A stretch of DNA of 64,000 nucleotides from Candidatus Adlerbacteria bacterium. Lineage in GTDB: Bacteria; Patescibacteriota; Minisyncoccia; Phycocordibacterales; SBAW01. The stretch lies in NCBI GenBank assembly GCA_903851045.1, contig CAINNF010000018.1, positions 3,925 to 67,924 on the forward strand, in the 5' to 3' direction. The translations under genes were made by a program, and so were the position numbers. The notes beneath the pieces were generated by a model. It was not told the DNA's origin and made no database searches. It saw nothing but the letters and a program-made list of their open reading frames with translations. This document shows positions 3,504-44,805 of the stretch, piece after piece (within the stretch, counting starts at the first letter, position 1; each line of letters starts with the position of its first letter).

Positions 3504-5030
3504 ATGCATACGCAGGAACGTACAACAGAAAGGCCCCCAATCGTGGCGGTCGTCGGACATATCGACCACGGGAAGTCGACGCTTCTTGACTATATCCGTA
3601 AATCAAAGACCGCCGAGGCCGAGGCTGGGGGCATCACCCAACATCTTTCAGCATACGAGGCGCTGCACACGACACCTGCAGGCATCGAGCGTCGTATCAC
3701 CTTCCTCGACACGCCGGGTCACGCAGCATTCGAAGCTATGCGATCGCGCGGTTTGGAAGCTGCGGATGTCGCAATCTTGGTCGTCTCTGCCGAGGACGGT
3801 GTAAAACCACAGACCGTCGAAGCGATCAAGCTCATCAACTCCGCACATATCCCGTTCATCGTCGCACTGACCAAGGTCGACAAGCCCGCCGCCAACGTCG
3901 AGCGCGCGAAAATGTCTCTGCTCGAGCACGGCGTATACCTCGAAGGGCTCGGCGGCGATATCGCCTTTGTCGCCGTGTCGAGCAAGACCGGCGAGGGTAT
4001 CCCCGAGCTGCTCGACCTCATCCTGCTCGCTGCCGAGCTCGAAGGACTTTCTGCCGACTCGGAGATGCCCGGCTCTGGACTCGTTATCGAGGCGCACGTC
4101 GACCAAAAGCGCGGCAACACCGCCACTCTTATCGTCAAAGACGGTAGTATCGAGAGCGGTGAGTTCGTCATCTCTGGCGAAAGCTACGCGCCGGTGCGCA
4201 TCATGGAGAACTATGTCGGGAAGAACATCAAGGTGGCGCTACCGGGAAGCCCGGTGCGCATCGTCGGGTTCTCGACCTTGCCCGAGGTTGGCGCGATGTG
4301 GCATGCGGTGGAGTCCAAGAAAGAGGCCGAGTCCGAGACGACCAACGCTCGTATCGAGCGTCTGACGCAGGAAAAGAAGCGACCGAACGTCTCCGAAAAA
4401 CCGGCGGAGGACACTATCCACATCATACTCCCGCTCGTCATCAAGACCGACTTCTCTGGCACCGGAGACGCGGTGCTGCACGAACTCAAAAAGATACCGG
4501 AGGACCCCCGCATGGAGGTGCGCGTCGTCGGACGCTCGGTCGGACATGTCTCGGAGAACGACGTGCGTCTCGTCGGCGCATCGACCCCCGCTGGCATCAT
4601 CGTCGGTTTCAACACCAAGGTCGACAATGACGCGCGCCAACTGGCGGACCGGCTCGGCGTGACCATCGCCACGTTCGATATCATCTACAAACTCACTGAG
4701 TGGCTCGAGTCAGAGCTTCAAAAACGTCATCCGCGAGAGAACATGGAGGAACGCATCGGCCTCGCGAAGGTACTCAAGGTGTTCAGCAATCAACAGGGTC
4801 GCATCGTGCTCGGAGGACGCGTCGAGGAAGGCACCTTGAGCGATGGGCAGGCAGTGAAGCTTCTGCGACAAGGAGAAGAGGTCGGACGTGGCGAGATCGT
4901 CAGTCTCCAGACCCAAAAGACTTCGGTTAAGAAGATTGAGAACGGCAAGGAGTTCGGTACGATGCTCAAGATGTCGGCCGAACCGGCGCCTGGCGATCAC
5001 ATTGAAGCGTTCGAGGTCGTCTTTAAATAA
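3504..5030 (+). CDS. infB: translation initiation factor IF-2 (short form, G domain at N-terminus)
   Basis: VAVVGHIDHGKSTLLD, DTPGH, LTKVDK motifs; 508 aa; followed by rbfA. Confidence 0.9.
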   Translation: MHTQERTTERPPIVAVVGHIDHGKSTLLDYIRKSKTAEAEAGGITQHLSAYEALHTTPAGIERRITFLDTPGHAAFEAMRSRGLEAADVAILVVSAEDGVKPQTVEAIKLINSAHIPFIVALTKVDKPAANVERAKMSLLEHGVYLEGLGGDIAFVAVSSKTGEGIPELLDLILLAAELEGLSADSEMPGSGLVIEAHVDQKRGNTATLIVKDGSIESGEFVISGESYAPVRIMENYVGKNIKVALPGSPVRIVGFSTLPEVGAMWHAVESKKEAESETTNARIERLTQEKKRPNVSEKPAEDTIHIILPLVIKTDFSGTGDAVLHELKKIPEDPRMEVRVVGRSVGHVSENDVRLVGASTPAGIIVGFNTKVDNDARQLADRLGVTIATFDIIYKLTEWLESELQKRHPRENMEERIGLAKVLKVFSNQQGRIVLGGRVEEGTLSDGQAVKLLRQGEEVGRGEIVSLQTQKTSVKKIENGKEFGTMLKMSAEPAPGDHIEAFEVVFK

Positions 5031-5660: not shown

Positions 5661-5744
5661 TGCCGGGGTGATGGAATGGTAGACATAGGGGACTTAAAAT
5701 CCCCAGACCTAATCGGTCGTGAGGGTTCGAGTCCCTCCCCCGGC
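5661..5744 (+). tRNA. tRNA-Leu (TAA), type II long variable arm
   Basis: Acceptor GCCGGGG/CCCCGGC, anticodon loop CTTAAAA, T-arm GAGGG-TTCGAGT-CCCTC. Confidence 0.85.
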
Positions 5745-6099
5745 ACCTTAAACGAACTGAATGGTTTTGAATGCAAATGCAATTCGAGCGACTTCTTGGA
5801 AAGTAACAGCTTTGCTTTTTCAAAACGATAAATTTCTTTTTCAATATCTTGGTCAAGATAACCATTAAGAAGTCGCTCTAACTTTTTCGACAAAGAAAAA
5901 ATCTTTTCTTCTTTGTCTTTCACACAAGCAATCAAAGACGGGGTGGAGTTTTTGTAGTCATCTAACGCCAAACGATTGAGTTCCTCCGACGGAAATGGTA
6001 AATATAAAAATGAGATTGAGTATAAGGGAGTTGAAAAATGTGTTATAATATTTCTAATAGTTGTATTACTAGAGTAAATCATATATGCCAGATTAAATT

Positions 6100-7587
6100 A
6101 TGAAAAAGGAGGATGAATGGTTAGTTGAGTTTTTTAAACATTTTGAGACGATACTTGCACCAAAGAGGTCAGAACTAAAGGATTGGTCTAAGGCAGCAGA
6201 TTTCCATGTCTTCAGCACGTTCTTAATCAAAGATATTCAAGAAATTCAAGAGTATTTGAAAAATGCCGATGACCAGTATCTTTATTATGTTTGTAGGCAT
6301 ATTTTTAATATTATAGATTGGATCAAACTTATGATTGTTTCTGGTCTTTCAAATTTTGGTATTGCTTTTGAAAACGTTTTTGATAAGCAATTTGGAGATA
6401 AATACATTCTGCAAAATTTGTATGATGCTTGTTTTGAAAAGTGGATTTCTCAAAAGAAAGGGCAATGGAAAATTGGAGAAAATTTTTATAACATTCTCGA
6501 TTGTAAGTTATATTACCGCAACCATTTTGGAGAGTGGTTTGAAGTCGAAAGAAGAACGGCCTTTGACCTTCTACCAGACAAAAAGCTTCTTGAAAACAAT
6601 TATTTAATCGAACAATTGAATAGCGAATGCAAAGAAACTTGGTACGATGCAATAATCAGAAAATGGGAAGATAAAAAATATCAGGGAGTACTACCAGATA
6701 ATTTTTTGAAATTTAATAAGGAAGAAACGAGTCCCGAAGAATATTCTGATTTTACAATTGAGAACATTAAAACATTAATAAAAAATCCGGTATCAATTGC
6801 GGAACTGGAACGCTGGAATAACGGCAAGATTTTGGATATAGAACACATCGTGAAAATAGCTTCTGGTGTATTAGAAATGGTAACAAAAAGGAGAGAAGAT
6901 AATTGTCATACTATATATCTTTTACGAGACTGTCTAGTGTTCTATGAAGTACACAAGACCATTGACCTCTTAAATTCGGAGCAGACTTCCGCTGATCAAA
7001 TATTGATTGGACGAAAATTACTCACACATGAATTAAGAGAATGGGGGTATTATGTAGTAACACTCGAATCTCTTTATATAGCTCATGACCGCTATCCAGA
7101 AAATTTTAGAGATTTCTACAATGAGTATGCAAGACTACTGGATATGTTCGTCTCTTTAAATCCAGGATTCGCAACTATTATATCTAATCTTGCTGAGTAC
7201 ATATCGGAACATATTCAAACAGACACAAATAAAATAGTTGTTTTCGACATAGGATTTCAAGGATCGATAGCACTATTAACAAAGTACATAATAGATCGCC
7301 ATATCAAGTCAAATGCCCCCAACAAAACAATGGAAACAGATGTGAAAATTGGTGTGGGTGCCGAATGGTCTAAGGGTTTGTTTGGAGATAGATATGAGAA
7401 TGACTGTTTTCCATTTCTAAATCGTTTGCAATTAATGGCAAGAAGTGATGAATTATTTCACTATAAACTGGGAAGTCTACATTCAGGTAAACTCCAGATT
7501 GTAATGGGTGATAAAGAATCGCAACATAAAGCTACCGTTGAACTTGTTGTTCTTGTAATGGTGACTCTATTGGCACAGAGTGAGTAA
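6100..7587 (+). CDS. hypothetical protein (island cargo), 495 aa
   Basis: Long clean ORF in the AT-rich island; no motif recognised. Confidence 0.5.
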   Translation: MKKEDEWLVEFFKHFETILAPKRSELKDWSKAADFHVFSTFLIKDIQEIQEYLKNADDQYLYYVCRHIFNIIDWIKLMIVSGLSNFGIAFENVFDKQFGDKYILQNLYDACFEKWISQKKGQWKIGENFYNILDCKLYYRNHFGEWFEVERRTAFDLLPDKKLLENNYLIEQLNSECKETWYDAIIRKWEDKKYQGVLPDNFLKFNKEETSPEEYSDFTIENIKTLIKNPVSIAELERWNNGKILDIEHIVKIASGVLEMVTKRREDNCHTIYLLRDCLVFYEVHKTIDLLNSEQTSADQILIGRKLLTHELREWGYYVVTLESLYIAHDRYPENFRDFYNEYARLLDMFVSLNPGFATIISNLAEYISEHIQTDTNKIVVFDIGFQGSIALLTKYIIDRHIKSNAPNKTMETDVKIGVGAEWSKGLFGDRYENDCFPFLNRLQLMARSDELFHYKLGSLHSGKLQIVMGDKESQHKATVELVVLVMVTLLAQSE

Positions 7588-7791
7588 AAAGGATATTGCT
7601 ACTATATCCAAGTTAATTTTGATGGTTTGGTTTTGACTTTCTTGGTGCATACACACCGATTTTTTTTGCAAACCGCACAAATATTATTCGCTGACATATT
7701 GGTGGGTTTCACCACATCACCATTATTTTTTTTCTGTTCGTCACTCATATTGTTTAATTATTTTAAATAAGGGTAATGCCTAGATAAACGT

Positions 7792-8763
7792 CTATTTTGT
7801 TTTGAAATTATCCAATATAGCGCAACTTTCCCGAATGTATTTCTTTGACCTCTCTAAATTTGCTGGGAGGGTCGAAACCATATGCCCTGATGAATCAGTC
7901 TGTGCGTCAGCGGGTTTTAGACGTCCTTGCGCATCAATAGCGATGCCTGGAAACTCTTTGGCTATTGGCTCAAGTAGATTCACTGAATCTGGTCCCAAAC
8001 CCCCTGCCACTGCAAGACCTAAATATGGAAGTTTACTATGGATTAATCTCAGCAAAGGGAGAAGTTCTCCCGCATCCATACCCTTTCCCTTTCCCATACT
8101 CATGTCTATCAAGGCAAAATCAATTGAATCACCGTACTCACGAAGTCGGTTCACTACTTCCTGAGGATCGCCATCAACAGCTCTTATTGCGAATTTTCCA
8201 AGTTGTAAGATAATGACAATATTTGGATTTCTCTCTTTAAACTTGCTCATTTCATCAGGATCTGGCCAGGTGACATCAAGTTGAATTGCGTGGAGATTTT
8301 TTCCTCCATATTGAACACATAATTCAAGATTTTTAAGGATGTCTGGAGATTCTTTAGCTTCCCATGGTCCGTTTGGGCCATATAAGTCAGCATAATGTAT
8401 AGTATTCAAAACATCTGGGTCATCAGTAAATCCATTTGCCATTTCTTCCGTGGTTGGAAACTCTTTACTTACTTCTTCGCGTACTTTCGGAGGAACCGGT
8501 AAATCAGGATTCAAAACAATAGGATGTGTCATGACCCCAACCATAATCTTCCGATCTGGATTTTTTCTATTTAGTCGAAGCTCATCAGCCATGGCTCGGG
8601 CTTGCTCAGGACTAAATACATCACAAACACCGGAATAACGATCGCGTTCCATGTTATGCAATTGTTCTTCGGCATCGGCATAATTTTTTGCCCTTCCTGA
8701 TTCAACTTTCTCTCGAAGCATCTCTGCTTCTTTTTGTGCTACTCTTTGTGAGTATTTTTCCAT
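7792..8763 (-). CDS. hypothetical protein (island cargo), 323 aa
   Basis: Long clean ORF; contains ALIDMSMGKGKG and LAVAGGLGPD, no confident family. Confidence 0.5.
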   Translation of the reverse strand: MEKYSQRVAQKEAEMLREKVESGRAKNYADAEEQLHNMERDRYSGVCDVFSPEQARAMADELRLNRKNPDRKIMVGVMTHPIVLNPDLPVPPKVREEVSKEFPTTEEMANGFTDDPDVLNTIHYADLYGPNGPWEAKESPDILKNLELCVQYGGKNLHAIQLDVTWPDPDEMSKFKERNPNIVIILQLGKFAIRAVDGDPQEVVNRLREYGDSIDFALIDMSMGKGKGMDAGELLPLLRLIHSKLPYLGLAVAGGLGPDSVNLLEPIAKEFPGIAIDAQGRLKPADAQTDSSGHMVSTLPANLERSKKYIRESCAILDNFKTK

Positions 8764-8811
8764 TTTAAGATTATAACTTTAAGATTATAACATGGTTCCG
8801 AAAGTCATACA

Positions 8812-8918
8812 TGTTGCCCGCCCGCACTCATTCCCCAGACCCCTTTCTGTGGGCGGGAAATGCAGTCTCGGTTTTGCCAAATCCATATCCCCAGAAAATA
8901 GTTTGGCAAAACCGAGTC
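8812..8918 (+). repeat. conserved structured element copy L1 (second copy at 62404..62500)
   Basis: Shared CATTCC-CCAGACCCCTYCTGYGGGCGGGAAATSCAG then a 9-13 bp stem (CTCGGTTTTGCCA/TGGCAAAACCGAG here) around the conserved loop AATCCATNTCCCCAGA..GTTT. Confidence 0.5.
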
Positions 8919-9239
8919 CATCAAATTGAAACTAGAATTCCGTCAGTTTCTCCCTTATGAGAAACCCGACCTCGCTCTCGCCACCACCATACCGAAAAAA
9001 GAAAAAAGAAAGCGCGCCAAATCAAAACAGAATGTGTGGTGGCGAGGCGAGGACGGAACAGCAGGAGAGGAAGAATAATGTCGTACTCGACAGTATTCTG
9101 GAACGGACGCTGGGCCGTGACGGAATTCATCGTGAAGCGTACGATTACATTTCACATTACCACACGCTCTGTGCGTGCGACATCATTACTCATTGATTTT
9201 TAAAACAGGTTCGGATTTGGTAAGATAAACGCACATCGT

Positions 9240-23869: not shown

Positions 23870-24251
23870 AAATTCTACTAGGATTTATACGGCAGAGCCC
23901 GATGAGGTAATCAAAAGGCTCCCAGCCATTGCGATAGCGCCTTTCGGCAACTACCCATACCCGTTTCCAGATATGACCTAGTAGAGTGACTCTGACTGGG
24001 AGTCCTTTGATCTCTACTAGGTTTTGCAACCATATCCTGAGAATTTGACTTCTTAGGGGTTAGGTCGGCTTGTATTCAATTGTTTGTACCAAGGGGTACA
24101 AGAACAATGATAACATTTTGAGTTATCACTTGGCCACCTTAGCTTAGCTTTGGAGGCTTGCGAAGGAGGTTACCAACAGAGATATGCGCCATCTCTGGCC
24201 TCAATTTGAGCTCACTAATCTATGCGAATGTTTTACTCCCACGAGTGAGTA

Positions 24252-27985: not shown

Positions 27986-28127
27986 AGTAATTTAGATTAA
28001 TTTTTACAAGCTACTACTAACTAATACGGGAGAAAGGGGCAATTAGGTGCTCTTCACGTCCCTACAACTGTTAATACGCCCACGGGACAAAAAAACTTTC
28101 ATCCCCAATTCATTAAAAGCTGGCTGG

Positions 28128-28433
28128 CTAATGAATGATATTAAAAGCCATAGATACAACGGTTATGACAAGTAGAGTAATACCCGCCATAAAAGAGTAG
28201 TCTGCAATATCTCGATATCGGGCAACGCGGGAGGCATCGTGACGCATGGAAATATAGGAATAAATGATGCTTATTGAAAGAAGAACTGAGGAAACTGCGG
28301 CAACCTCGTCTAAAATTGTTGAATTTGCAACACCGCTTACCCGGAGCCCGGTAATGATTATCAGACAAACCCCAATAAGGTTTGCGGCCGATTGCAGTAT
28401 GTGTGACGTGGCTTCTTTTTTGTATTCGCTCAT
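28128..28433 (-). CDS. small polytopic membrane protein
   Basis: ORF with three hydrophobic segments. Confidence 0.35.
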   Translation of the reverse strand: MSEYKKEATSHILQSAANLIGVCLIIITGLRVSGVANSTILDEVAAVSSVLLSISIIYSYISMRHDASRVARYRDIADYSFMAGITLLVITVVSMAFNIIH

Positions 28434-28760
28434 ATTTTTATTTGTTAATACTGCTTGTAACTATCAGTTTTAGCAAAAGAGGCCCCTATTGGAGGTCTCT
28501 TTTGCAAAAGTTCATAGTGTTTTTTGTACCAATTGTTTTTGAGTAGAGAGTCGACGAACGCATGTGGGCCGTAAAGAGTATTGCTATCCAATCAAGCGAG
28601 TAAGTACCTAATTACAAACCGGCTTGGGGGTGCGACACTCGCGGGCAATATTGTAGTAACAATAAGTTCGCTCGAGTCCAACAGTTGCAAGTGGTTGATT
28701 ACTAGTAATGCCTCGACCTGCACTTACTACTACGCGAGCAAACAAAAATTCCTTTCAAAG

Positions 28761-29447
28761 CTACTGCTCCCAGTTATGCACTGAGCGTGCAATAAATACA
28801 CTCGTCGAAGATTCAAGCAAACCAAACATTCGTATTGTGGAACTTGCGACGGGGACAAACGAGCCTGTGGATGTTGCGACCCGAACCTTCCAAGTACGGC
28901 CGTTAAAGTCAGTAACAGAAAAATTGTTGTTATCCTGGATTGAAGTGATGACTCCAGCCAACCTTCCCACAACCGGACGGCTATATGCTTCTCCCGAATC
29001 CAGCACCAACGAATCGTAGAGCGGTATGGTATTCAAAAATTCATGAGTAATTTTCCCAACACCAAAGAAGTTGAGGATTGAGCCGAAAATAATACTCAGA
29101 ATCACACAACCCAAAACCATCACTCGTATCGGGTACCTGTATCCCTTCTTTGTGTGTTTAAGTCCGATTCGTGCAATTACTATGAATAACACGAGCGCAA
29201 TAATCCAAAGAAACGGTACCATCGCGAGAAAATCAATCACATCATGGGGCATCGCCCATAGACCGTGTTTATGGAAATCAACAAAAAGGTACAGCATCAC
29301 TCCAACGGAAAAACCACCAAGGAGTAGGGAGAGTGCGGCACACAGCCAGTAAAACACTCGCCATACGAGAAAGCGCCAACGCGGAATCGAAATAATCTGA
29401 TCCTTCTCAATCCGTCCCATTATTTTGTTTGATAGTTCTTCGCTCAT
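28761..29447 (-). CDS. putative anti-sigma factor (membrane protein co-transcribed after ECF sigma)
   Basis: Start overlaps sigma stop (ATGA); N-terminal cytoplasmic segment then multiple TM helices. Confidence 0.45.
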   Translation of the reverse strand: MSEELSNKIMGRIEKDQIISIPRWRFLVWRVFYWLCAALSLLLGGFSVGVMLYLFVDFHKHGLWAMPHDVIDFLAMVPFLWIIALVLFIVIARIGLKHTKKGYRYPIRVMVLGCVILSIIFGSILNFFGVGKITHEFLNTIPLYDSLVLDSGEAYSRPVVGRLAGVITSIQDNNNFSVTDFNGRTWKVRVATSTGSFVPVASSTIRMFGLLESSTSVFIARSVHNWEQ

Positions 29448-30028
29448 ATGGTTGTCATCCCTTTGGCTTCCAGCGCAGTTTTTAATTCTTTTTTCCCTCG
29501 GTTGATAAGTGTTGCAACGGTACCCTCCGGCATTTTTAAAATGTCGCTAATCTCAGTATAGCTTTTCTCTTCAAGAAAACGGAGAACAAAAACCTCCTTG
29601 TATTTTGGATCAAGCTCAGAAAGAAGACTCTGTACAAGACGGGCATCGTCTCGTTTATGAGTAAGTTCAACAAAATCAGTCTCATCTGCTAACTGCTCAA
29701 AAAACACGTCCGTGTCCTCTGCGCTTAAGTTTAGTACGCGGGGGCGGACTTTTTTCTTTCTAAGAAACGAAACGGTCTCATTATGAGCTATGCGATAGAG
29801 CCATGATGAAAACTTAAGGCCGGAATCATAGTCATTGAGATTAATAAATACCTTGATGAAAATCTCTTGTAGTACGTCGTCTACGTCACCGTCATCAATA
29901 CCTCCTAAACGTTTACAGTAGCGGCGGATAGGGGCCTCGTACCTATGAACAATCTCTGAAAAAGCCTGCTTATCGGTAAGAGCGGCAGCGACTAATTCTT
30001 GGTCTGTTTTTGTTGATTCTACATTCAT
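29444..30028 (-). CDS. ECF-family RNA polymerase sigma-70 factor
   Basis: Region 2 (VLQEIFIKVF...FSSWLYRIAHNETVSFLRKKK) and region 4 HTH (YTEISDILKMPEGTVATLINRGKKELK). Confidence 0.85.
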   Translation of the reverse strand: MNVESTKTDQELVAAALTDKQAFSEIVHRYEAPIRRYCKRLGGIDDGDVDDVLQEIFIKVFINLNDYDSGLKFSSWLYRIAHNETVSFLRKKKVRPRVLNLSAEDTDVFFEQLADETDFVELTHKRDDARLVQSLLSELDPKYKEVFVLRFLEEKSYTEISDILKMPEGTVATLINRGKKELKTALEAKGMTTI

Positions 30029-30198
30029 GTAACTAAAAGTCGATATCGAGGAGCCCTGGGAGCATAACTGGCTCTGGATACTTCTTGTCGCAGAAAGCTG
30101 ACTCCTCTTTATACTAGCAATCTTGACCTTTTCTTACCAACTTCGAGGGCATTCGGACGCTCTGGACTCCTTAAGGGGTCTGCGTCATCTCTTGAGGT

Positions 30199-31530
30199 AT
30201 GGAACAAATAGCAACAAGGCCCGGTTTGGGAGACACAAGGAGGCAACCCATAGCCCAGCCAGTACGAGTTAGATATTGCCTCTATGCAAGAAAGAGTACC
30301 GAGTCAGAAGAAAGACAGGTCCTTTCTATCGATTCGCAGATCAAGGAGATGCTCCAGTTGGCCGACCGTGAGGGGCTGGAGATAGTCGAATTGAAACGAG
30401 AGAGTCACTCGGCAAAAGAGACTGGGCAGCGACCTGTTTTTAACGAAATAGTAGATGAGCTAAAAGCTGGCAAATATAACGGCATACTCACGTGGGCACC
30501 AGATCGTATTAGCCGCAATGCTGGAGATCTTGGAAAGATAGTAGACCTGATGGATGCGGGGACACTTCAGGAAATACGTACTCATAGTCAAAGTTTTAGG
30601 AATAACCCCAACGAAAAGTTCCTTCTGATGATTCTCGGGTCGCAAGCGAAGCTCGAAAACGATAACCGAGGCGTAAATGTTAAGCGTGGGCTACGGACAC
30701 GCTGCGAAATGGGCCTTAGGCCGGGGGTTGCCCCAGTGGGATATTCAAATGAGAAACACGCCGACCGTAAATGTCACGCGGTTATCGACGAACTGCGCGC
30801 ACCCGTAATCAAGCAAATGTTTGAGAAAGTGGCGAACGAGCAATGGAGTGGCAGGAAATTGTACCAATGGCTGAAATTCGACCTCAACTTCAAAAGTAGG
30901 GCAAACAAAAACATGACGTTGAGTAGTGTCTACGTGGTACTTCAAAACCCCTTCTACTATGGCGTATTCGAGTATCCAGAAAAGAGCGGCAACTGGTACG
31001 ACGGCAAACATCAACCTCTTATCACCAAGGAGCTGTTCGATAAAGCGCAGGAGCAACTCAAACGAGACCGCATCCTGCGCTCCGATATTAAGGAGTTTGC
31101 CTTTATTAAGCTCATGTTATGTGGGGCTTGCGGCTCGGGCATTACAGCGGAGGAGAAGTTTAAGAAACTAAAGGACGGCACCTCAAACCGCTACGTGTAC
31201 TACGGCTGCACCCGTGCGAGGGACAAGGACTGCAAGAACGGTTACGTACGGGAGGAAGAGTTGATTACTCAGACGGTCAAAATTATGGACCACATCGACC
31301 TCAACAACATCAGCATGCGGGAAAAATTCGAGGCAGAGGTAGACCGTATGCGAAAGTTTCAACGCGCATTCACTGCCACGACAACGGATGCAAAACCGCA
31401 AAAAGAAATCGACCTGCGCGGCTACGCTAAGTATTTACTCAAGGAAGGGAGTGTGACGGAGAAGCGCGAGTTGCTGCTCTGTATTAAGAGCAAGTTGGTA
31501 CTCGACAAGGGAACTCTGAGATTGGAGTAG
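30199..31530 (+). CDS. large serine recombinase (resolvase/invertase N-domain + recombinase + zinc-ribbon)
   Basis: VRYCLYARKSTESEERQVLSIDSQ (catalytic Ser region), ...WAPDRISRN; C-terminal CGACGS...YYGCTRAR zinc ribbon. Confidence 0.85.
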   Translation: MEQIATRPGLGDTRRQPIAQPVRVRYCLYARKSTESEERQVLSIDSQIKEMLQLADREGLEIVELKRESHSAKETGQRPVFNEIVDELKAGKYNGILTWAPDRISRNAGDLGKIVDLMDAGTLQEIRTHSQSFRNNPNEKFLLMILGSQAKLENDNRGVNVKRGLRTRCEMGLRPGVAPVGYSNEKHADRKCHAVIDELRAPVIKQMFEKVANEQWSGRKLYQWLKFDLNFKSRANKNMTLSSVYVVLQNPFYYGVFEYPEKSGNWYDGKHQPLITKELFDKAQEQLKRDRILRSDIKEFAFIKLMLCGACGSGITAEEKFKKLKDGTSNRYVYYGCTRARDKDCKNGYVREEELITQTVKIMDHIDLNNISMREKFEAEVDRMRKFQRAFTATTTDAKPQKEIDLRGYAKYLLKEGSVTEKRELLLCIKSKLVLDKGTLRLE

Positions 31531-31534
31531 CGAT

Positions 31535-32776
31535 CTACTTTCCCTTAAGTCGATCCTTATACTTCTTCCTCTGTAACCCAAGGTGGTACTTATGAAAATC
31601 ATCACTATCGCACTCGTTCTCAATTGTCAGAGCTTGCATACACCGGCCTCGACGATATGGACCGAATAGTTTTGCAAATTCTCCCTGAAACCACTGGAGT
31701 GTGTCGTGCTCGCTACCCGCATTCGTTTCTTTGCTGAAATCAGGATCCCCCGGCAATCTTCCGTATTCGTCCATAGCCCCGCCAGTCCCGTCATTATTGC
31801 CCCACATTATCTCGCCGCCCCAATGAATCGCACGAGGGTCAGGCATGAGCAGGTATCCATGCCCGTAGATATTCCAGTCTGATTTAGAGACATGGCGCTC
31901 AGGATACAACCATTCTTCCCTTGCTGCAGCTAAGTAACGGGTCGCACGACTCTTTATGATGAAATTTATTTCACGAACCTCCTGCTCGGTAAGGTGGCGC
32001 AGAACTTGGACATCGGTGAACTTAAATATTGCATTGCGAAAAGGAAACGAATTGGGGCGCTCTTGCTTCGCAGATTGATATGGATTCCTTACCCATGAAA
32101 GGTTTGTGAGTATCAGTACTTTATCGATCGAGAGTGGAAAAATGGTGTGTGTCCCCTGGAGCCATATCTCGGGATCGTTTGAGTCGCGACACTGATGTGA
32201 TCGGGGTCCGCATTCTCGATTATATACAGTAACGGGGTGATCAGAGACAATAAACTTCGTCTCCGACTGAGAAGCGTCCGCAATGAGCCAGACACATTCC
32301 GTCCAAATGGCGGAATGAATATTACGCAATCGAATCATGGCGCGTAGAATCGCGTCCTTATCCTTGCTTCCGATTTTCTCACTTAAAAACGAGAGGCCTT
32401 TGGGAGTCCTGAGTTTCTGGGTACTCATATAGCGCAAGATGTCCTCAAGGGAAGTTCCCCAATCCTTTAGTGGGTAGCCAAATTTTTCAAAGTACTCGAC
32501 AGCGGGGCGACCTTTCGTGTCTATCTCGCCGAAAAAGTGTTTCTCAATGTCTTTCACTTCAATGCCTCGTATTTTTGTCGTATATAAATCTTCTTCGACG
32601 AAACACTTTTTGCTGCCTTGCCGTTTTACTGCCTTCCTAATATGACGTACACCGCGCGGATCAGTGAAAGTTTCTGGATTCAAATCCAACTGAAACAGTT
32701 CATGTTCGCCAGGTAGCATGAACTTCTTTTGGTACCACTGCGGTACGTAGTGGTGATTTCGGTATTCATCAGGCAT
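31535..32776 (-). CDS. DUF4238-family protein
   Basis: N-terminal HHYVPQWYQKKF matches the DUF4238 signature HY(I/V)PQFYL..F as I recall it. Confidence 0.45.
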   Translation of the reverse strand: MPDEYRNHHYVPQWYQKKFMLPGEHELFQLDLNPETFTDPRGVRHIRKAVKRQGSKKCFVEEDLYTTKIRGIEVKDIEKHFFGEIDTKGRPAVEYFEKFGYPLKDWGTSLEDILRYMSTQKLRTPKGLSFLSEKIGSKDKDAILRAMIRLRNIHSAIWTECVWLIADASQSETKFIVSDHPVTVYNRECGPRSHQCRDSNDPEIWLQGTHTIFPLSIDKVLILTNLSWVRNPYQSAKQERPNSFPFRNAIFKFTDVQVLRHLTEQEVREINFIIKSRATRYLAAAREEWLYPERHVSKSDWNIYGHGYLLMPDPRAIHWGGEIMWGNNDGTGGAMDEYGRLPGDPDFSKETNAGSEHDTLQWFQGEFAKLFGPYRRGRCMQALTIENECDSDDFHKYHLGLQRKKYKDRLKGK

Positions 32777-32907
32777 TCCTAAACATTACTCCTGCCAGCA
32801 AAAAAGTTCGAATCCGCTTAGGGTTCGAACTTTTTTGTCTTTACTCATTTTTTATAGCCCCTTGTTTTATAGGGCACGCGGTCGCGAGACACGCATGCCC
32901 GTTCCTG

Positions 32908-32992
32908 CGGAGGCGGAGAGATTCGAACTCTCGAACCCTTGCGGATTGCCGCCTTTCCAAGGCGGTGCACTCGACCACTATGCGACGCCTCC
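32908..32992 (-). tRNA. tRNA-Ser (GGA), type II
   Basis: Reverse complement GGAGGCG..., anticodon stem CCGCC/GGCGG, loop TTGGAAA, long variable arm, T-arm GAGAG-TTCGAAT-CTCTC, acceptor CGCCTCC. Confidence 0.8.
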
Positions 32993-40808: not shown

Positions 40809-41105
40809 ATGCGTTCCTACAGAGGAGCGACCACTATGTCCACCTGGGTACTCGTGGCCGGGATACTTACCTACCTCATTTCGGCAGGCATCATTGGCAC
40901 CTTCGCCTATAAGGATCTGGCTCACGAGTGGCGCGCCAGAACTATCAGGGTCGAACAGGTGTTCTGGGCGAGCGTGGCGGCACTCGTCCCGGCCATCAAC
41001 ACTGGCCTCGTCATCTTCGTCACGCTGCTGTGGCTGCTGTCGACAGCACTCGAATGGGTCCACAAGAAGCTCAACGTACCCCTGTTGTCGAAGACAAAAG
41101 AATAA
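40809..41105 (+). CDS. small membrane protein
   Basis: Two TM helices. Confidence 0.35.
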   Translation: MRSYRGATTMSTWVLVAGILTYLISAGIIGTFAYKDLAHEWRARTIRVEQVFWASVAALVPAINTGLVIFVTLLWLLSTALEWVHKKLNVPLLSKTKE

Positions 41106-41121
41106 AGATATCGACCACCAT

Positions 41122-41170
41122 CCCCGGCCCAGCCGGGGATTCTCTTTTTTGTACAAGGGTTACACTTGGA
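41122..41170 (+). repeat. array junction J1: GC hairpin (CCCCGGCCCAGCCGGGG) + T-tract + TGTACAAGGGTTACACTTGGA
   Basis: Member of the 7-copy junction repeat family (terminator then palindromic operator). Confidence 0.6.
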
Positions 41171-41254
41171 CTGGGTGGCACTGTATCGTTCACACTTGAC
41201 AGATTTTAAATTTATTATAAAATACAATTAGAGTCCAAAAAAACAGAGAGGTGT

Positions 41255-41728
41255 TTGATGAAAAACCAAACCAACGTACCTGAGGCGGTCGCACACATTG
41301 CCGAGGCACTGCTTCAGCTTCCTGGTATTACAGGAGTCAAATACGTCGAAGGAGTGGAAGCGATTGCAGTAAGCGAGAGGCCACTTGTGCTGGTACTCCA
41401 TGTTGACAACGTTGTAGCTTACTCGTTCCTGACCTACACACTACAGGTAAGGGACATTCTGACGAAGACGCCTGACTCGGCTGCGGCACAGAACATCCGC
41501 AAATTGGGTGCGGGTGATTCGGCTGTACGCTGCATGGCCGCTGCACTTGCAGTGCGGCCGCACACGCAGAACCTTCTAAAGGCGCTGCGTATCGACGACA
41601 CACCCCTCGGGAGCGTGGATGTCTTGATGGTGGCGCCTGGGGACGCATTCGCAGCGCAATTGAGCACCGCTCTGTTTGGCGCCGCATACATCTTCAAGGT
41701 CCTGAAGCTTGCCAGACCGCTCGCTTGA
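41255..41728 (+). CDS. array ORF A, hypothetical (157 aa)
   Basis: AGAGAGGTG RBS; bracketed by J1 and J2. Confidence 0.45.
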   Translation: MMKNQTNVPEAVAHIAEALLQLPGITGVKYVEGVEAIAVSERPLVLVLHVDNVVAYSFLTYTLQVRDILTKTPDSAAAQNIRKLGAGDSAVRCMAAALAVRPHTQNLLKALRIDDTPLGSVDVLMVAPGDAFAAQLSTALFGAAYIFKVLKLARPLA

Positions 41729-41735
41729 CCACACA

Positions 41736-41797
41736 CCCGCCCAGCGACCCCAGAGGTCCTGGGCGGGATTTCTTTTTGTACAAGGGTTACTTTTGGA
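41736..41797 (+). repeat. array junction J2: hairpin CCCGCCCAG...CTGGGCGGG + ATTTCTTTTTG + TGTACAAGGGTTACTTTTGGA
   Basis: Junction repeat family. Confidence 0.6.
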
Positions 41798-41887
41798 AAG
41801 ATACAGCGGTGGTGGTTGACAAAAGTAAGTGTCCCATATACACTTACTTTGATTAAGTTCCTTAACTGCATATGGGGGAGACATCCC

Positions 41888-42220
41888 ATGACCGAAAAAC
41901 AAGGCTTACCTCTGATCACGCCGACCGGTGACTTCATCATCTGTACAGGATGCAGGATCGAGAAACATCACTTGCCTGGTGGGTATGAGTGCGGCGGCCA
42001 GCAAGTGCTGCTCGACCGCATTGGTGGCGAGCCGTACGTGGTTGAAAATTACTCCTGGACGACCTGGACGACTAACCCACCAGACCCATCGGTCAGATTT
42101 GCCCACATGCGTGATGCGATCGTGGCCGAACTCGTGAAGGCGGCAACGACCGAGAAACCCGGGGTCATCGACCTTCGTCTACTGCAGATCTTTCAGAAGA
42201 AACTTCGTACTGCAGCCTGA
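41888..42220 (+). CDS. array ORF B, hypothetical Cys/His-containing protein (111 aa)
   Basis: Start at MTEKQG after GGGGGAGA RBS; CTGCRIEKHH...ECGG; C-terminal DLRLLQIF motif shared with ORF C. Confidence 0.4.
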   Translation: MTEKQGLPLITPTGDFIICTGCRIEKHHLPGGYECGGQQVLLDRIGGEPYVVENYSWTTWTTNPPDPSVRFAHMRDAIVAELVKAATTEKPGVIDLRLLQIFQKKLRTAA

Positions 42221-42236
42221 CACGTTAGCCCCTTTT

Positions 42237-42298
42237 CCCGCCAAAGACCCCAAAGGTCCCCGGCGGGATTTCTTTTTGTACAAGAGTTACCCTTATCC
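42237..42298 (+). repeat. array junction J3: hairpin + ATTTCTTTTTG + TGTACAAGAGTTACCCTTATCC
   Basis: Junction repeat family (degenerate palindrome). Confidence 0.55.
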
Positions 42299-42383
42299 AG
42301 TCACGTCTTATTCTAGTTTTTTGCAAAAAACTAGAATATATCAACACTGTTTTAGTGGCCAAAAAGTCTTTCGGCGAGATTTT

Positions 42384-42406
42384 TTGTACAAGGTTTATCC
42401 TTGTAT
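42384..42406 (+). promoter_or_regulatory. 23-bp palindrome TGTACAAGGTTTATCCTTGTATA (operator-like), J4
   Basis: 9-bp arms, 5-bp spacer, 8/9 arm symmetry; no ORF follows for ~370 nt. Confidence 0.5.
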
Positions 42407-42649
42407 AGAGCAATTATTGAGAGACTAACCCAAGCTCGCTCCGATTCCCTAAAGGAAAAGCCACCCACACGCAGTCGGTGTTGGGTGGCATATAAGTGGT
42501 TCGAGCAGTCTCGAGCAGGCAGCGTCCTCGTCGTGGCTGGGACACCGCTTTTCTCACACAACTGGATGGTGTTTCATTGACGACTCCCGTCCGACCTCAG
42601 TCAAACGTTCACAGTCTCCCATCTACACTGTGCTCGTGCATAATAGCTC

Positions 42650-42740
42650 TCGACCCCGCCGGAGAGAGTCGAACTCCCCTCCCTGCCCCGTCTAGGCAGG
42701 GTCGCCGTGGCGGTTTGCTCGAACCAGCGTCATCGTACCA
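42650..42740 (-). other. tRNA 3'-half-like fragment (T-arm GGGAG-TTCGACT-CTCTC + acceptor-like CGGCGGG), not a complete tRNA
   Basis: On minus strand ...GGGGAGTTCGACTCTCTCCGGCGGGGTCG; 15/16 identity to the T-arm region of tRNA-Ser(GGA) (GGAGAGAtTCGAACTC vs GGAGAGAgTCGAACTC on +). No matching 5' acceptor or D-arm. Confidence 0.3.
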
Positions 42741-42780
42741 AAACAAATATAGAAATCAACAGCACCCTTCTATCGTTTTT

Positions 42781-42803
42781 TGCACAAGGTTTATCCTTGT
42801 ACA
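42781..42803 (+). promoter_or_regulatory. 23-bp palindrome TGCACAAGGTTTATCCTTGTACA, J5
   Basis: Best-conserved copy of the operator-like palindrome; ~80 nt upstream of ORF C. Confidence 0.5.
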
Positions 42804-42883
42804 GACTTATCGAAGGACTGACCCCAGTGTTGGATACATAGACAACAAAACGTAAAAACGGTACTGTTCTTTGCGGTGGCTCG

Positions 42884-43381
42884 GTGGCGAGCCTCATAGG
42901 GAGAAAGCCAACGCAGTCCGTTCGGACGAGAATCTTTGCTCAGACCGTTCTCGACACAATCCTTACGCCCGAGCAGTCTCGGCTTCAAAACAACCCGCGG
43001 GCAGCGTTAGCGGTCCCCATCAACATCCACTGTGGGCAGCAACGCCGGACCATTGTCGCACTGTTTCATGTCGCCCCCAACGACATGACCTGTCTCACGT
43101 GGAGGTGGGTCAACGAGGACCGCCTCCCACTACAGAGTCGATTCCACACCATGACGCAGTGGAACGTACACATGGGAGCTCTGTACGAAACCCGAGGGGG
43201 TCTGAAAGTCTTACTCAACCACTGCGTGAACATCTTTCTCGCCAGCCTTAATGCCGACGAGCACGACCCAATCACGTTCCGCCTCCTGCAAACGTTTCGA
43301 CTCGAGTTGGACGAAGGGCACACGTTCGAGGGCAATACCTTCAACTGTCAAATCCTCTCGTCCGTACTTGTGACAGCATAG
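42884..43381 (+). CDS. array ORF C, hypothetical (165 aa; GTG start in track)
   Basis: Protein-like composition; C-terminal TFRLLQTF motif similar to ORF B. Start uncertain. Confidence 0.35.
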   Translation: MASLIGRKPTQSVRTRIFAQTVLDTILTPEQSRLQNNPRAALAVPINIHCGQQRRTIVALFHVAPNDMTCLTWRWVNEDRLPLQSRFHTMTQWNVHMGALYETRGGLKVLLNHCVNIFLASLNADEHDPITFRLLQTFRLELDEGHTFEGNTFNCQILSSVLVTA

Positions 43382-43416
43382 TTCTCTCCCGCACAAGACA
43401 ACCTCACCGTCTCATC

Positions 43417-43494
43417 CCCCGCCGGAGAAGACCTCACAGGTCCCCGGCGGGATTTCTTTTTGTACAAGGTTTATCCTTGGATACTTACACCACA
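43417..43494 (+). repeat. array junction J6: CCCCGCCGGAGAAGACCTCACAGGTCCCCGGCGGG + ATTTCTTTTTG + TGTACAAGGTTTATCCTTGGATACTTACACCAC
   Basis: Canonical junction: strong terminator hairpin immediately followed by the palindrome. Confidence 0.65.
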
Positions 43495-43589
43495 CTTCTT
43501 TTTTCTATGTAATTGTCACAATTTCCGCCAGATTTGACATGCTTATATATAAATGATAAAATATTTTTTGGTAAGCATGGAGGAAAGCT

Positions 43590-43895
43590 ATGTGGCGTAT
43601 CGTGGTTGGCGATGTCGAAATCAAAACCGACAAGCTGGGTGGCCAACTTAAAGGCTCAAGGTTTGTCTTCCCTGACGGGAGCTACGTTGCTTTGCCCGGC
43701 GGTATAGTAAACCTGGGGTCTGGCAGCATCTCAACCAAAACTCTTCCGCCAGACTCAGCGCTGCCAACGGGAGAGGTCCGCTACCCCAGCGGGTACGTGA
43801 CAACCGATCAAGGCAACTCAAAAAAGATCGCCTGGTTGCCTATCGTTCTCGCCATCGCGACACTGATTGGTTGTCTGTCCTACTTCCTCCTGTAA
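43590..43895 (+). CDS. array ORF D, tail-anchored small membrane protein (101 aa)
   Basis: GGAGGAAAG RBS; C-terminal TM IAWLPIVLAIATLIGCLSYFLL. Confidence 0.4.
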   Translation: MWRIVVGDVEIKTDKLGGQLKGSRFVFPDGSYVALPGGIVNLGSGSISTKTLPPDSALPTGEVRYPSGYVTTDQGNSKKIAWLPIVLAIATLIGCLSYFLL

Positions 43896-43969
43896 AAGGG
43901 CAAGAGCTGTTATATACCCCGCCGTTAATCGTGACTGTCACCATTTCCCCGACCCTTTAGGAGAGACGT

Positions 43970-44146
43970 ATGCCGACCGCCGACACTTTGATGTTCTGCT
44001 TCCTCATGATGTCCATGGTGATTCTCGGAGCCACGGCGATATGGGGCAACTGGATCTGGGACGGCAAGTCGAAACCACCCAGTTTCTGCCGTTTCTGGTT
44101 CGTCCTTGCGCCTCGTGCATTCCTCAAATTTTTCGTGGGGCGTTAA
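43970..44146 (+). CDS. small hydrophobic protein (58 aa), not in ORF track (<60 aa)
   Basis: AGGAGAGACGT-ATG RBS; MPTADTLMFCFLMMSMVILGATAIWGNWIW... TM. Confidence 0.3.
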   Translation: MPTADTLMFCFLMMSMVILGATAIWGNWIWDGKSKPPSFCRFWFVLAPRAFLKFFVGR

Positions 44147-44292
44147 CTTATACACCGCAGACGAAGGTCCGACACCTCCTCTGCGGTTTTTCTTATGAAG
44201 AGTTGCACCATACGGACAATATGTCATGATGCGATCGGCTAGCTCGTTGTATCCACACTGGCTGTGCACGATACGCAAAAAGGAGACGCAGG

Positions 44293-44796: not shown

Positions 44797-44805
44797 CAAA
44801 GCCAT

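Follow-up and report, generated by a model that had tools for sequence, protein, structure and literature searches.

Two hairpin-bearing arms in a Candidatus Adlerbacteria contig belong to a Patescibacteria-wide family of islands at tRNA 3' ends

The window analyzed here, that is, the whole stretch of 64,000 nt from a contig of a Candidatus Adlerbacteria bacterium, harbors two copies of a structured element, L1 (8817-8916) and L2 (62402-62495), both on the + strand and each with two hairpins, P1 and P2. Both are arm copies of an integrative island family that is found throughout the Patescibacteria at the 3' ends of tRNA genes, and each represents the tRNA-distal arm of an island that has lost its recombinase module. 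The loops of the hairpins are conserved and C-rich in both copies, and the stems differ in sequence yet are complementary. We consider it probable that, in this family of tRNA-end islands, the folded core of the arm is a module for recombination or cargo exchange.

Arm copies and islands in the window

Hairpin P1 is formed by pairing of 8817-8826 with 8848-8857 in L1 and of 62402-62411 with 62431-62440 in L2, and its loop contains CCCCAGACCCC. Hairpin P2 results from pairing of 8867-8879 with 8904-8916 in L1 (CTCGGTTTTGCCA / TGGCAAAACCGAG) and of 62452-62460 with 62487-62495 in L2 (GGCAGGGCG / CGCCCTGCC); its loop, AATCCATNNCCCCAGA..GTTT, is followed on the 3' side by CCGAGTCC. The z scores for folding of the + strand are -6.1 for L1 and -2.9 for L2. 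An initial annotation had described look-alikes of about 100 nt at these two distant loci, with a conserved loop and different but complementary stems. The look-alikes are real and both are located on the + strand at the places given, and the pattern of loop and stems was confirmed for P2 of both copies. However, a single stem-loop had been recognized, which corresponds to P2, and it had been missed that P1 is a hairpin as well. Also, the element is indeed shared, but it is longer than 100 nt; the L2 arm spans about 62365-62559 and the L1 arm about 8795-8945, to which a conserved flank of 290 nt is added. The arm copy of the L1 subtype (+ strand) ends with ..GAATTCCGTCA, the repeat boundary being taken from the inverted pair of a related locus (L034). 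The arm copy of the L2 subtype (+ strand) has a tail that ends with ..AACAAACACTGC and gave an nhmmer match at 62365-62564 with 190 bits.

A covariance model built from family members and run on the window scored about 136-137 bits for L2 and 97 bits for L1, and no other convincing match was found in the window. A weak model match of 12.9 bits at 32759-32855 looks like the terminator hairpin of a tRNA. Neither the pattern search nor nhmmer nor the covariance model revealed a partner arm for L1 or L2 in the window. In a sensitive BLAST comparison of the two islands described below, the arm alone was shared, and the flanks of the two copies were unrelated.

Island 1 extends from 5748 to about 9236. 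Its insertion target and left boundary is the gene for tRNA-Leu(taa) (5662-5747, + strand), which was identified by ARAGORN and Rfam. Next to it lies the remnant of a large serine recombinase gene, comprising the C-terminal part and pointing to the tRNA (5770-6010, - strand), which has 78.6% nucleotide and 69% amino-acid identity to the 3' portion of a 533-aa recombinase ORF in a family locus (L038). The recombinase module has been lost apart from this remnant. The cargo (6100-8763) has a low GC content of 0.32-0.42 versus about 0.55 in the flanks, and none of its three ORFs (6100-7587 on the + strand, 7602-7748 and 7792-8763 on the - strand) has a match in Pfam or NCBIfam. The L1 arm is followed by the distal flank that is conserved in L1-type arms (8946-9236, + strand) and includes, at about 8970-9052, the long hairpin that had been noticed downstream of L1 and proved to be imperfect. 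The flank has 75-83% identity in four other loci (L034, L074, L043, and L028), where unrelated genes come after it, and it is missing from two relatives that are empty at tRNA-Leu(taa) (L140 and L141), in which a gene for 289 aa directly follows the tRNA. Because it is conserved up to unrelated genes and missing from the empty sites, the flank is part of the insertion. Other assemblies break at 8929-9097.

Island 2 extends from 60794 to about 62566, with the gene for tRNA-Ser(cga) (60704-60793, + strand; ARAGORN and Rfam) as insertion target and left boundary. It is left with a spacer S, one cargo gene, and the arm, and has no recombinase. The spacer (60794-60906, + strand) has 82% identity to positions 3903-4016 of locus L127 and resembles the spacer of L036; at the junction of tRNA-Ser and S, CTCCGCCA is directly followed by AAATT... 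The cargo gene (60948-62342, + strand) encodes a PRMT5-like methyltransferase (Pfam PF05185, 1.6e-06) and lies in low-GC DNA (GC 0.42). Two relatives are empty at tRNA-Ser(cga) (L136 and L137), and the homology to the empty site resumes past L2 at 62567 with GCTTATAAACAGT. The check proposed in the initial annotation, whether further copies border tRNA-adjacent islands, was well chosen: copies do lie at such islands, and empty sites are found in relatives. At the far boundary, a direct repeat of the tRNA 3' end was seen only in two family loci (L118 and L031) and is not convincing in the window, where a weak GGTTCGGATTTGG..GCAC resemblance precedes 9240 and nothing comparable follows L2. In other assemblies of the same strain, contigs break near arms and tRNAs, and no alternative structures were observed at either locus. 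As the window copies lack both a partner arm and an intact recombinase of the arm family, they may be inert relics. A third recombinase locus of the window, at 30199-31530, lacks comparable inverted repeats.

Architecture and distribution of the island family

To collect family loci, species genomes as well as metagenomes were searched with a pattern. More than 240 loci with the P1-P2 module were found (more than 120 in genomes and more than 120 in metagenomes), so that the lack of further copies in relatives, which had been named as an observation that would speak against the element, does not apply. Almost all loci are labelled Patescibacteria, and the MAG labels include Saccharibacteria, Paceibacteria, Kaiserbacteria, Woesebacteria, and Peribacteria. 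The viral contigs of IMG/VR contained no true copies, the two matches being chance similarities inside coding sequence, and the arm is thus not phage-borne in IMG/VR.

The P1-P2 motif is the constant core of an arm of about 200 nt, and these arms usually occur as inverted pairs around 1.4-4.5 kb of cargo. The genome set contains 24 such pairs, with arms of 193-208 nt and 99-100% identity. Nearly every element has a cargo of its own, and the cargo genes include restriction-modification systems, transporters, and enzymes. For 19 of the 24 pairs, the recombinase gene or its spacer was found beside one arm, and two of the other five are located on contigs that end within the arms. The recombinase was found by tblastn in 31 sources and has the domains Resolvase, Recombinase, and Zn_ribbon_recom (e.g., 5030-6142 in L120). 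Two features by which an island of this type is recognized are observed, namely, a recombinase with these three domains in related loci and presence or absence of the insertion at the tRNA 3' end.

The recombinase end of the element abuts the tRNA gene's 3' end, and the order of a complete element is tRNA, a 113-nt spacer S, the large serine recombinase, S inverted, arm, cargo, and arm inverted, with both arms pointing outward. This canonical order was found in eight loci (L021, L036, L041, L067, L072, L078, L080, and L118), while the recombinase segment is flipped in L127. Upstream of the recombinase gene, at a distance of 280-400 nt, the proximal arm always shares the orientation of this gene. 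Each arm consists of a variable inner stretch, the constant two-hairpin core, and a variable tail that ends in a copy of the 3' end of the target tRNA. The junctions of tRNA and S and of arm and S have a common core, CCGCCA followed directly across the junction by A, with CCACCA in elements that target tRNA-Ala. The initial annotation missed this context, that is, that the element forms the core of an arm within a terminal inverted repeat, that it is linked to a serine recombinase, and that L1 and L2 are not genes standing on their own but single arms left by elements that have decayed. A literature search found no description of an arm-bearing element. The family of serine-recombinase islands is widespread and apparently undescribed, and its arm-bearing elements are a new variant of tRNA-targeting integrative islands.

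Conservation, exchange, and possible roles of the hairpin core

Selection on the hairpin structure, which had been proposed from the two window copies, is strongly supported, and it extends well beyond the window. In P2, 7 of the 9 pairs have changed on both sides and 98% of the cells are paired, a result reached by none of 500 shuffles. P1 exists with at least four fully complementary stem types (CCCGCCCGCA/TGCGGGCGGG, CCCGCGCGGA/TCCGCGCGGG, AAGCGGAGGA/TCCTCCGCTT, and CCCGTGCGGA/TCCGCACGGG) around one unchanged loop of 19-21 nt. Compensatory pair changes, the generic hallmark of structured RNAs, are present, and a DNA hairpin would score alike; also, the counts of G-U and A-C mismatches gave no clear signal for a strand or for RNA versus DNA. 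With the gathering threshold, Rfam yielded nothing for L1 or L2, and at E values up to 10 there were only sub-threshold matches to miRNA-like hairpins (14-17 bits). The core is conserved irrespective of the recombinase clade, the target tRNA, and the class of the host: across recombinase clades with 43-54% identity, the identity is 81-96% for P1 and 79-93% for P2, compared with 27-68% for the tail and 13-66% for the sequence beyond. That P1 stays the same with recombinases that are just 43-54% identical argues against P1 being a specific binding site of these enzymes. The idea that the arm is a tRNA-derived fossil was discarded, as the best local scores of 20-25 are within the range of shuffled sequences (mean 21, maximum 26-28). 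It had arisen from TCCCCAGACC, which is common to the arm and tRNA-Leu(taa) and is treated as a chance similarity, and from the T-loop-like sequence downstream of the P2 loop.

The arms also carry traces of exchange. In chimeric arms (L063, L121, L198, L250, and both arms of L254), the 5' and 3' strands of P1 are of different types, which places the breakpoint within the 20-nt P1 loop, and both reciprocal chimeras, type 1-type 3 and type 3-type 1, exist. Because this loop is the longest invariant stretch, ordinary homologous recombination could also have produced such breakpoints. Three pairs (L011, L015, and L105) have arms that agree in the inner part and in P1 and diverge from P2 outward, and one inner type is combined with five tail types. 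Only one cargo pair is informative for orientation (L048 and L108), and its two members do not differ in how the cargo is oriented to the recombinase. No excision product, cargo inversion isomer, or circular junction was seen. Two further schemes were rejected: for a cargo circle with a palindromic attachment site, the fetched loci contained no head-to-head arm junctions, apart from a short palindrome beside the tRNA of L088, and for tandem simple cassettes rearranged by inversion, the expected spacer copies inside the cargo were not found.

In the mechanism that we consider most likely, the arm tail and S would jointly make up the attachment junction that the recombinase uses to insert the element at the tRNA end. 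The P1-P2 core would act as a folded single strand, which would fit stems that are free to vary around fixed loops. Elements would trade their cargo modules at this core by crossovers within the P1 loop, and the inverted layout would permit cargo to be swapped or flipped without deletion. Large serine recombinases are known to act on double-stranded sites of about 40-50 bp and not on hairpins, and we know of no serine recombinases that use folded single strands. We are rather doubtful about the most far-reaching version, in which Patescibacteria would have a cassette platform that resembles integrons but relies on a serine recombinase, and in which cargo between inverted hairpin sites would be swapped from element to element via the P1 loop, the site acting either as a folded single strand or through an RNA made from it.

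It is possible, albeit not probable, that the P1-P2 core is instead a structured RNA, which would be either a small RNA or the leader at the 5' end of the mRNA for the recombinase. The apical loops are C-rich (UCCUCCCC, CCCCUCCU, and UCCCCCAGA), resemble anti-Shine-Dalgarno sequences, and could pair with G-rich ribosome-binding sites, thereby controlling the recombinase or other genes. It is a classic RNA signature that the stems of both hairpins covary freely around fixed loops, and the z scores of the + strand, the co-orientation of the proximal arm with the downstream recombinase gene, and the constancy of the core, which suits a universal RNA target rather than a clade-specific protein site, point in the same direction. 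However, Rfam contains no matching family, a promoter scan found no promoter-like site in the arms or just inside them, the second copy reads outward into unrelated host DNA, and the wobble versus A-C counts favor neither strand. Moreover, an RNA role by itself leaves the perfect inverted pairs, the chimeras, and the reassortment of inner parts and tails unexplained. Another reading is that P1 is a conventional double-stranded recombination site with 10-bp inverted arms and a 19-21-bp core, and that the element's own serine recombinase would invert or exchange the cargo between the two inverted copies, as in Gin/gix, Cin/cix, or FLP/FRT within long inverted repeats. An inverted repeat, a segment, and a second inverted repeat beside a serine recombinase gene are the layout of invertible segments, P1 has the size of a serine-integrase site (about 40 bp), chimeras of both reciprocal kinds exist, and the recombinase segment occurs in both orientations (L127 versus the eight canonical loci). 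Nevertheless, protein-bound sites keep their arms and vary the spacer, whereas P1 does the reverse, and the same P1 accompanies recombinase clades that are highly divergent. The sole informative cargo pair shows one orientation, and the junctions put the recombinase crossover at the arm terminus beside S and not at P1, so that we regard this reading as unlikely.

The arms might also be passive, providing portable homology for RecA-mediated swaps of cargo after DNA uptake, with hairpins that merely shield the cargo as insulators or terminators. Mosaic arms suit homologous recombination, transcripts that exit the cargo either way would meet the same hairpins, and inverted repeats cannot delete the cargo. 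In addition, in the inward direction the stem of P1 is GC-rich and a T-rich run comes after it, and similar terminators of the form CCCGCC..CCCCAGAGG..GGCGGG-TTTCTTTTT occur at 41.7-44.9 kb of the window. Yet terminators need no 20-nt loops that are kept across bacterial classes, a terminator scan detected none in either arm, and in the outward direction AAAT comes after P1; we judge a passive role to be improbable. It is far less plausible still that the arms, as terminal inverted repeats, delimit an ordinary transposon or a MITE-like cassette served in trans by a DDE or HUH transposase. Long terminal inverted repeats around passenger genes with no transposase inside would agree with such a cassette, the subterminal hairpin with its conserved loop is reminiscent of the sites of HUH enzymes, and GGGGTCTG, the reverse complement of the P1 loop, is identical to the first bases of Tn3-family ends. 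However, the repeat has its GGGG motif about 145 nt from the tip and not at the tip itself, no target-site duplication was seen at the arm ends, the elements are found at tRNA 3' ends and are not scattered, no copies were found in viral contigs, and the serine recombinase is the only consistently linked gene, with no transposase linked. Lastly, chance or a simple segmental duplication in this genome might be suspected, because pairwise BLAST of L1 against L2 returned just a single 30-nt block with E = 0.03. This is already refuted by the hundreds of copies with the same block order in other genomes, by the covariance scores of both copies, and by their unrelated flanks.

Patescibacteria have tiny genomes and few recognized mobile elements, and their acquisition of accessory genes is therefore poorly understood. 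The arm family could be among the main ways in which cargo turns over in this group. With the invariant core as a simple sequence tag, such islands and their boundaries can be located in fragmented MAGs, and the core also explains many assembly breaks. If the core is indeed a recombination site that depends on a folded strand or on RNA, this would extend the known abilities of serine recombinases, and cassette swapping via the P1 loop would represent a chemistry or mode of guidance that is not known for these enzymes. Compact recombinases with defined tRNA-end targets would also be of interest as tools.

Relation to known systems

The hairpin core shares features with sites and RNAs of quite different origin. 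As in integron attC sites and other sites that are recombined or nicked as folded single strands, such as rolling-circle origins and IS200/IS605 ends, structure is kept while the sequence varies, and the structure is tied to exchangeable gene cassettes; the invariant loop is also reminiscent of a Rep or HUH nick site. However, no gene for a tyrosine integrase, Rep, or HUH protein is linked to the arms, and the arm loops are conserved, whereas attC sites have a variable loop and conserved stem ends, so that the features that define attC and IntI are absent. Several hairpins with C-rich apical loops and possible pairing to Shine-Dalgarno sequences are also characteristic of the RsaE/RoxS RNAs of Firmicutes, from which the module differs in lacking any sequence or Rfam match and in residing in the repeats of a mobile element as inverted pairs.

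Invertible segments are known from the G segment of Mu with Gin, from the C segment of phage P1 with Cin and inverted repeats of 0.6 kb, and from the yeast 2-micron plasmid, in which FLP/FRT operates within inverted repeats of 599 bp. The arm elements resemble them in having long, near-perfect inverted repeats with the recombinase gene just outside and a recombinase module in both orientations. In contrast to invertible segments, different elements carry unrelated cargo, in which alternative coding ends or promoters are lacking; their recombinase is of the large-integrase type, and cargo inversion was not observed. Staphylococcal cassette chromosome (SCC) elements with Ccr recombinases resemble the arm elements in that the serine recombinase belongs to the large family, the arm-element enzyme being weakly similar to CcrB and CcrA. 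Both also insert site-specifically where a conserved gene has its 3' end, vary strongly in cargo, and have terminal inverted repeats and recombinase-less derivatives that stay in place. However, the CcrB score of the arm-element recombinase is 98 bits versus a cut-off of 900, the target is a tRNA gene and not rlmH, the arms are 200 nt long and carry structured hairpins, and the hosts are Patescibacteria.

Islands at tRNA genes include the tycheposons of Prochlorococcus, one class of which is integrated by large serine recombinases (bioRxiv 10.1101/2020.12.28.424599), and the islands of the Islander/TIGER catalogue (PMC4383910). The arm elements are similar to both with regard to location at the tRNA 3' end, a recombinase gene beside the tRNA, variable cargo, empty sites in relatives, decay to recombinase-less islands, and occasional displaced copies of the tRNA 3' end (L118 and L031). 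To our knowledge, neither the arm nor the second inverted repeat, the hairpin core, or the tRNA-mimicking terminus has been described for tRNA-gene islands. Unlike the tycheposons and Islander islands, the arm elements carry their cargo between perfect inverted arms of 200 nt and their recombinase within a second inverted repeat, and they combine a two-hairpin core that is kept across bacterial classes with an arm terminus that mimics the end of the tRNA.

Two hairpin copies at the edges of tRNA-adjacent islands

The two window copies of the hairpin motif, L1 and L2, lie on the + strand where the initial annotation had placed them, and each forms two hairpins, P1 and P2. P1 has a 10-bp GC-rich stem in both copies (8817-8826 pairing with 8848-8857 in L1, 62402-62411 with 62431-62440 in L2) and a loop of 19-21 nt with CCCCAGACCCC at its centre. 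The suggestion that the stem is wholly different between the copies while the loop is common holds for P2, in which 8867-8879 pairs with 8904-8916 in L1 (stem CTCGGTTTTGCCA/TGGCAAAACCGAG) and 62452-62460 with 62487-62495 in L2 (stem GGCAGGGCG/CGCCCTGCC), both around the loop AATCCATNNCCCCAGA..GTTT, followed by CCGAGTCC. Folding of the + strand was more stable than that of shuffled sequences, with z values of -6.1 (L1) and -2.9 (L2). By pairwise BLAST, the similarity between the two copies was weak, consisting of one 30-nt block (E = 0.03).

In both islands, low-GC DNA starts just past a tRNA gene, with the motif copy at its right edge; tRNA-Leu(taa) (5662-5747) precedes L1, and tRNA-Ser(cga) (60704-60793) precedes L2. 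Island 2, the insertion at tRNA-Ser(cga), consists of a 113-nt spacer termed S (60794-60906), a methyltransferase gene (60948-62342), and the L2 arm (about 62365-62559), an arm being the inverted-repeat unit of about 200 nt around the P1-P2 core. In a related MAG this site is empty: tRNA-Ser(cga), an SdpI-like gene (65% protein identity to that of the window), and tRNA-Val are present with no insert, and homology to the window picks up at 62567, a few bases past the L2 arm terminus. Island 1, the insertion at tRNA-Leu(taa), comprises a remnant of a recombinase C-terminus (5770-6010; 78.6% DNA identity to L038, one of the comparison loci from other genomes and metagenomes, all denoted by three-digit handles), three orphan ORFs, the L1 arm (about 8795-8945), and a 290-nt flank that includes a long hairpin. 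This flank is conserved in L034, L074, L043, and L028, where unrelated genes come next. Two relatives lack island 1 and have a homologue of the 289-aa gene directly after tRNA-Leu(taa). Taken together, the layouts and the empty sites identify L1 and L2 as the tRNA-distal arms of insertions, both of which have had the recombinase module and the proximal arm deleted; the copies thus border tRNA-adjacent islands, a point that the initial annotation had raised. A related MAG in which the site of island 1 is empty (L140, 3800-4315) harbors an HNH-endonuclease gene between tRNA-Cys and tRNA-Leu(taa), which are just 90 nt apart in the window. The tRNA-Leu(taa) gene also contains TCCCCAGACC (5698-5709), identical to the P1-loop centre; according to alignment statistics, this identity is due to chance.

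The proposed comparison with Rfam, carried out at two thresholds, returned no family match for L1 or L2. Elsewhere in the window, LOOT RNA (RF03000) gave a clear match at 23933-24066 on the - strand (72.5 bits versus a gathering score of 46.4). Searches of the window with a covariance model and an nhmmer profile found no other convincing copy of the motif. Weak matches to the arm covariance model were obtained for hairpins in the region 41100-44900, in which small ORFs form a run and each has a P1-like terminator hairpin (CCCGCC..GACCCCAGAGGTC..GGCGGGATTTCTTTTT) behind it. Past these hairpins, the conserved motif TTGTACAAGG(G/T)TTA(C/T)CCTTGGATA occurs in 6-9 copies with a spacing of 500-1400 nt, and the region gives the impression of arrayed small gene cassettes with a common 3' end or regulatory box. 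In addition, a 125-nt repeat is present in two copies that are 83% identical (52950-53074 and 53698-53822), each with a perfect inverted repeat of 25-28 nt whose arms are 51 nt apart; a further hairpin at 63629-63721 has 21-nt arms and the same 51-nt spacing.

Spread and architecture of the complete element

An exact-pattern scan (CCCCAGACCCCN{3,10}GGGCGGGAA) of one genome per species returned at least 120 matches. Together with a second scan, of metagenomes, for which the pattern was made to catch variant P1 stems and the matches listed are a lower bound, it confirmed that related genomes contain further copies. Apart from a few chance ones, the genome matches listed can all be aligned to the two window copies along about 200 nt; L026, L029, L045, and L116 were rejected as chance matches, and L066 shares the pattern alone. 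The matches listed are mostly MAGs labelled as Patescibacteria lineages, among them Saccharibacteria, Paceibacteria, Nomurabacteria, Kaiserbacteria, Moraniibacteriota, Woesebacteria, Peribacteria, and Uhrbacteria; a few short contigs with the motif are binned outside Patescibacteria. No true copies were found in viral contigs.

Among the matches listed, 24 genome loci contain inverted motif pairs, 1.4-4.5 kb apart and both facing outward. The arm repeats have lengths of 193-208 nt and a complementarity of 99-100%; from the CCCCAGACCCC box, each arm extends about 55 nt towards the cargo and about 146 nt outward. The cargo differs in nearly every element and includes type II and type III restriction-modification genes, transporters, an aminotransferase, a glycosyltransferase, an HD-domain protein, and many unknowns. 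Right outside one arm, past a conserved spacer, begins a gene that is transcribed away from the arm and encodes a protein with Resolvase, Recombinase, and Zn_ribbon_recom domains. This recombinase is weakly similar to XisF and CcrB, and among solved structures it matches the integrases of SPbeta and A118. Of the 24 pairs among the matches listed, 19 have the recombinase or its spacer next to one arm, the other five including two contigs that end within the arms (L010 and L018).

The canonical order in the module map (L021, L036, L041, L067, L072, L078, L080, and L118) starts with tRNA-Ser and S (113 nt), followed by the recombinase gene, which is oriented towards the tRNA, an inverted copy of S (130 nt), one arm, the cargo, and the other arm. 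L127 has the recombinase segment reversed between the same junctions, and other recombinase clades are found at tRNA-Ala (L016, L097) and tRNA-Leu (L114). The recombinase module has been lost, leaving varied scars, in L056, L057, L068, L088, and L128. A third large serine recombinase gene of the window (30199-31530, in the region 28000-32992) is intact, codes for 443 aa, and is 35-39% identical to the recombinases of the family. It neighbors a 413-aa gene and tRNA-Ser(gga) (32907-32992, - strand), and a low-GC sigma/anti-sigma pair lies upstream; no arms or inverted repeats were found at this locus, and a weak model match at 32759-32855 looks like a terminator.

The junctions of S with the tRNA and with the arm have a common core: ...CTCCGCCA abuts AAATTCGG on the tRNA side, and ...AAACACCGCCA abuts AAATTCGG on the arm side. 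In tRNA-Ala elements, the terminus ...CACCACCA matches the ...GTCCACCA of the tRNA. Thus, the last bases of the arm follow the discriminator base plus CCA of the target tRNA, and the inverted repeat around the recombinase takes in these tRNA-end-like bases. The arm/S junction is likely to be the crossover region of the recombinase. At a greater distance, L118 and L031 also have a displaced copy of the tRNA 3' end, which is the scar that integration at tRNA sites usually leaves. Between tRNA-Ser(tga) and the arm of L088 (3249-3300) lies a perfect palindrome, TTTTAAAAACACCAAGCGAGCTTGGTGTTTTTAAAA, in which the arm terminus is repeated head-to-head and which may be a trace of arm joining or resolution. 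The points at which same-strain assemblies diverge from the window (10889 and 12170; L004 3242-3582, L005 1845-2033) coincide exactly with the 3' ends of tRNA-Lys(ctt) and tRNA-Leu(tag), indicating that these genes are also strain-variable insertion points.

Covarying stems, constant core and mosaic arms

Selection on structure, proposed from the two window copies, is evident in both stems. Across 56 arms, changes on both sides were observed in 7 of the 9 P2 pairs, and 98% of the cells were paired. The P2 covariation score was 0.237 versus 0.075 in shuffles, none of the 500 shuffles reached it, and sliding the pairing partners gave 0.04-0.12. P1 seemed invariant in the first arm set, which had been selected by the P1 3' strand; the diverged copies and the metagenome set contain at least four stem types, CCCGCCCGCA/TGCGGGCGGG, CCCGCGCGGA/TCCGCGCGGG, AAGCGGAGGA/TCCTCCGCTT, and CCCGTGCGGA/TCCGCACGGG, each fully complementary, around an unchanged 20-nt loop. 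At the sequence level, P1 and P2 both carry the signature of a hairpin with a sequence-specific loop, which would apply to RNA and to a DNA strand alike. G-U pairs are about as numerous as A-C mismatches.

The recombinase clades share 43-54% protein identity; between their representatives, DNA identity is 81-96% in P1 and 79-93% in P2, 27-68% in the arm tail, which faces outward, and 13-66% in the 120 nt beyond it. The tail and S change together with the recombinase clade and its target tRNA, whereas the core does not, which argues against the core being the clade-specific binding site of the recombinase. More likely, its role relates to something that all elements or hosts have in common.

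Some arms are chimeric, with the P1 5' strand of one type and the 3' strand of another, so that the junction falls inside the 20-nt loop: type 3 is joined to type 1 in L063 and L121, type 1 to type 3 in L250 and both L254 arms, and a type 2-like strand to type 3 in L198. In the L011, L015, and L105 pairs, the two arms show no difference in the inner part or in P1, and their subtypes differ from P2 outward. The commonest inner-part type occurs with five tail types (13, 9, 4, 4, and 1 distinct arms), and in all 24 pairs the inner parts match over 47-81 nt, measured from the CCCCAGACCCC box towards the cargo. Thus, the cargo and the inner half-arms act as a unit that is re-joined to varied outer half-arms and backbones. 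An enzyme may act at the P1 loop; ordinary homologous recombination via the most conserved stretch would produce the same mosaic pattern.

Candidate mechanism and relation to known systems

We propose that the arm tail and S would form the attachment junction, that the core would act as a folded strand and as the point of cargo exchange, and that the inverted layout would allow exchange while guarding the cargo against deletion. Alternatively, the core could be a structured RNA, either the leader of the recombinase or a small RNA, its C-rich loops resembling an anti-Shine-Dalgarno sequence. This possibility, which we regard as real but rather unlikely, accounts well for the loops and for the independence from the recombinase clade, but the promoter scan of the arms found no promoter, and the inverted pairs and chimeras are left unexplained. 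The layout would also suit a conventional double-stranded inversion site, to which variable arms and a conserved spacer do not fit; we consider it improbable. Passive homology arms with insulator hairpins, for which the mosaics speak and the invariant loops do not, are similarly doubtful. Classical transposon ends and chance similarity are excluded or unlikely.

In membership tests, the element did not belong to Ccr/SCC, integrons, insertion sequences, or any Rfam family. The double inverted-repeat architecture, the arm terminus that mimics a tRNA end, and the class-spanning two-hairpin core have, to our knowledge, not been described, and no description of any of them was found in the literature searched, an incomplete set, so that a prior one is possible. 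There is a modest chance that the element hides a new recombination or regulatory mechanism. In its mode of operation, it resembles a tRNA-targeting integrative island with a large serine recombinase, and its habits are SCC-like: variable cargo, recombinase-less derivatives, and an insertion site at the 3' end of a conserved gene.
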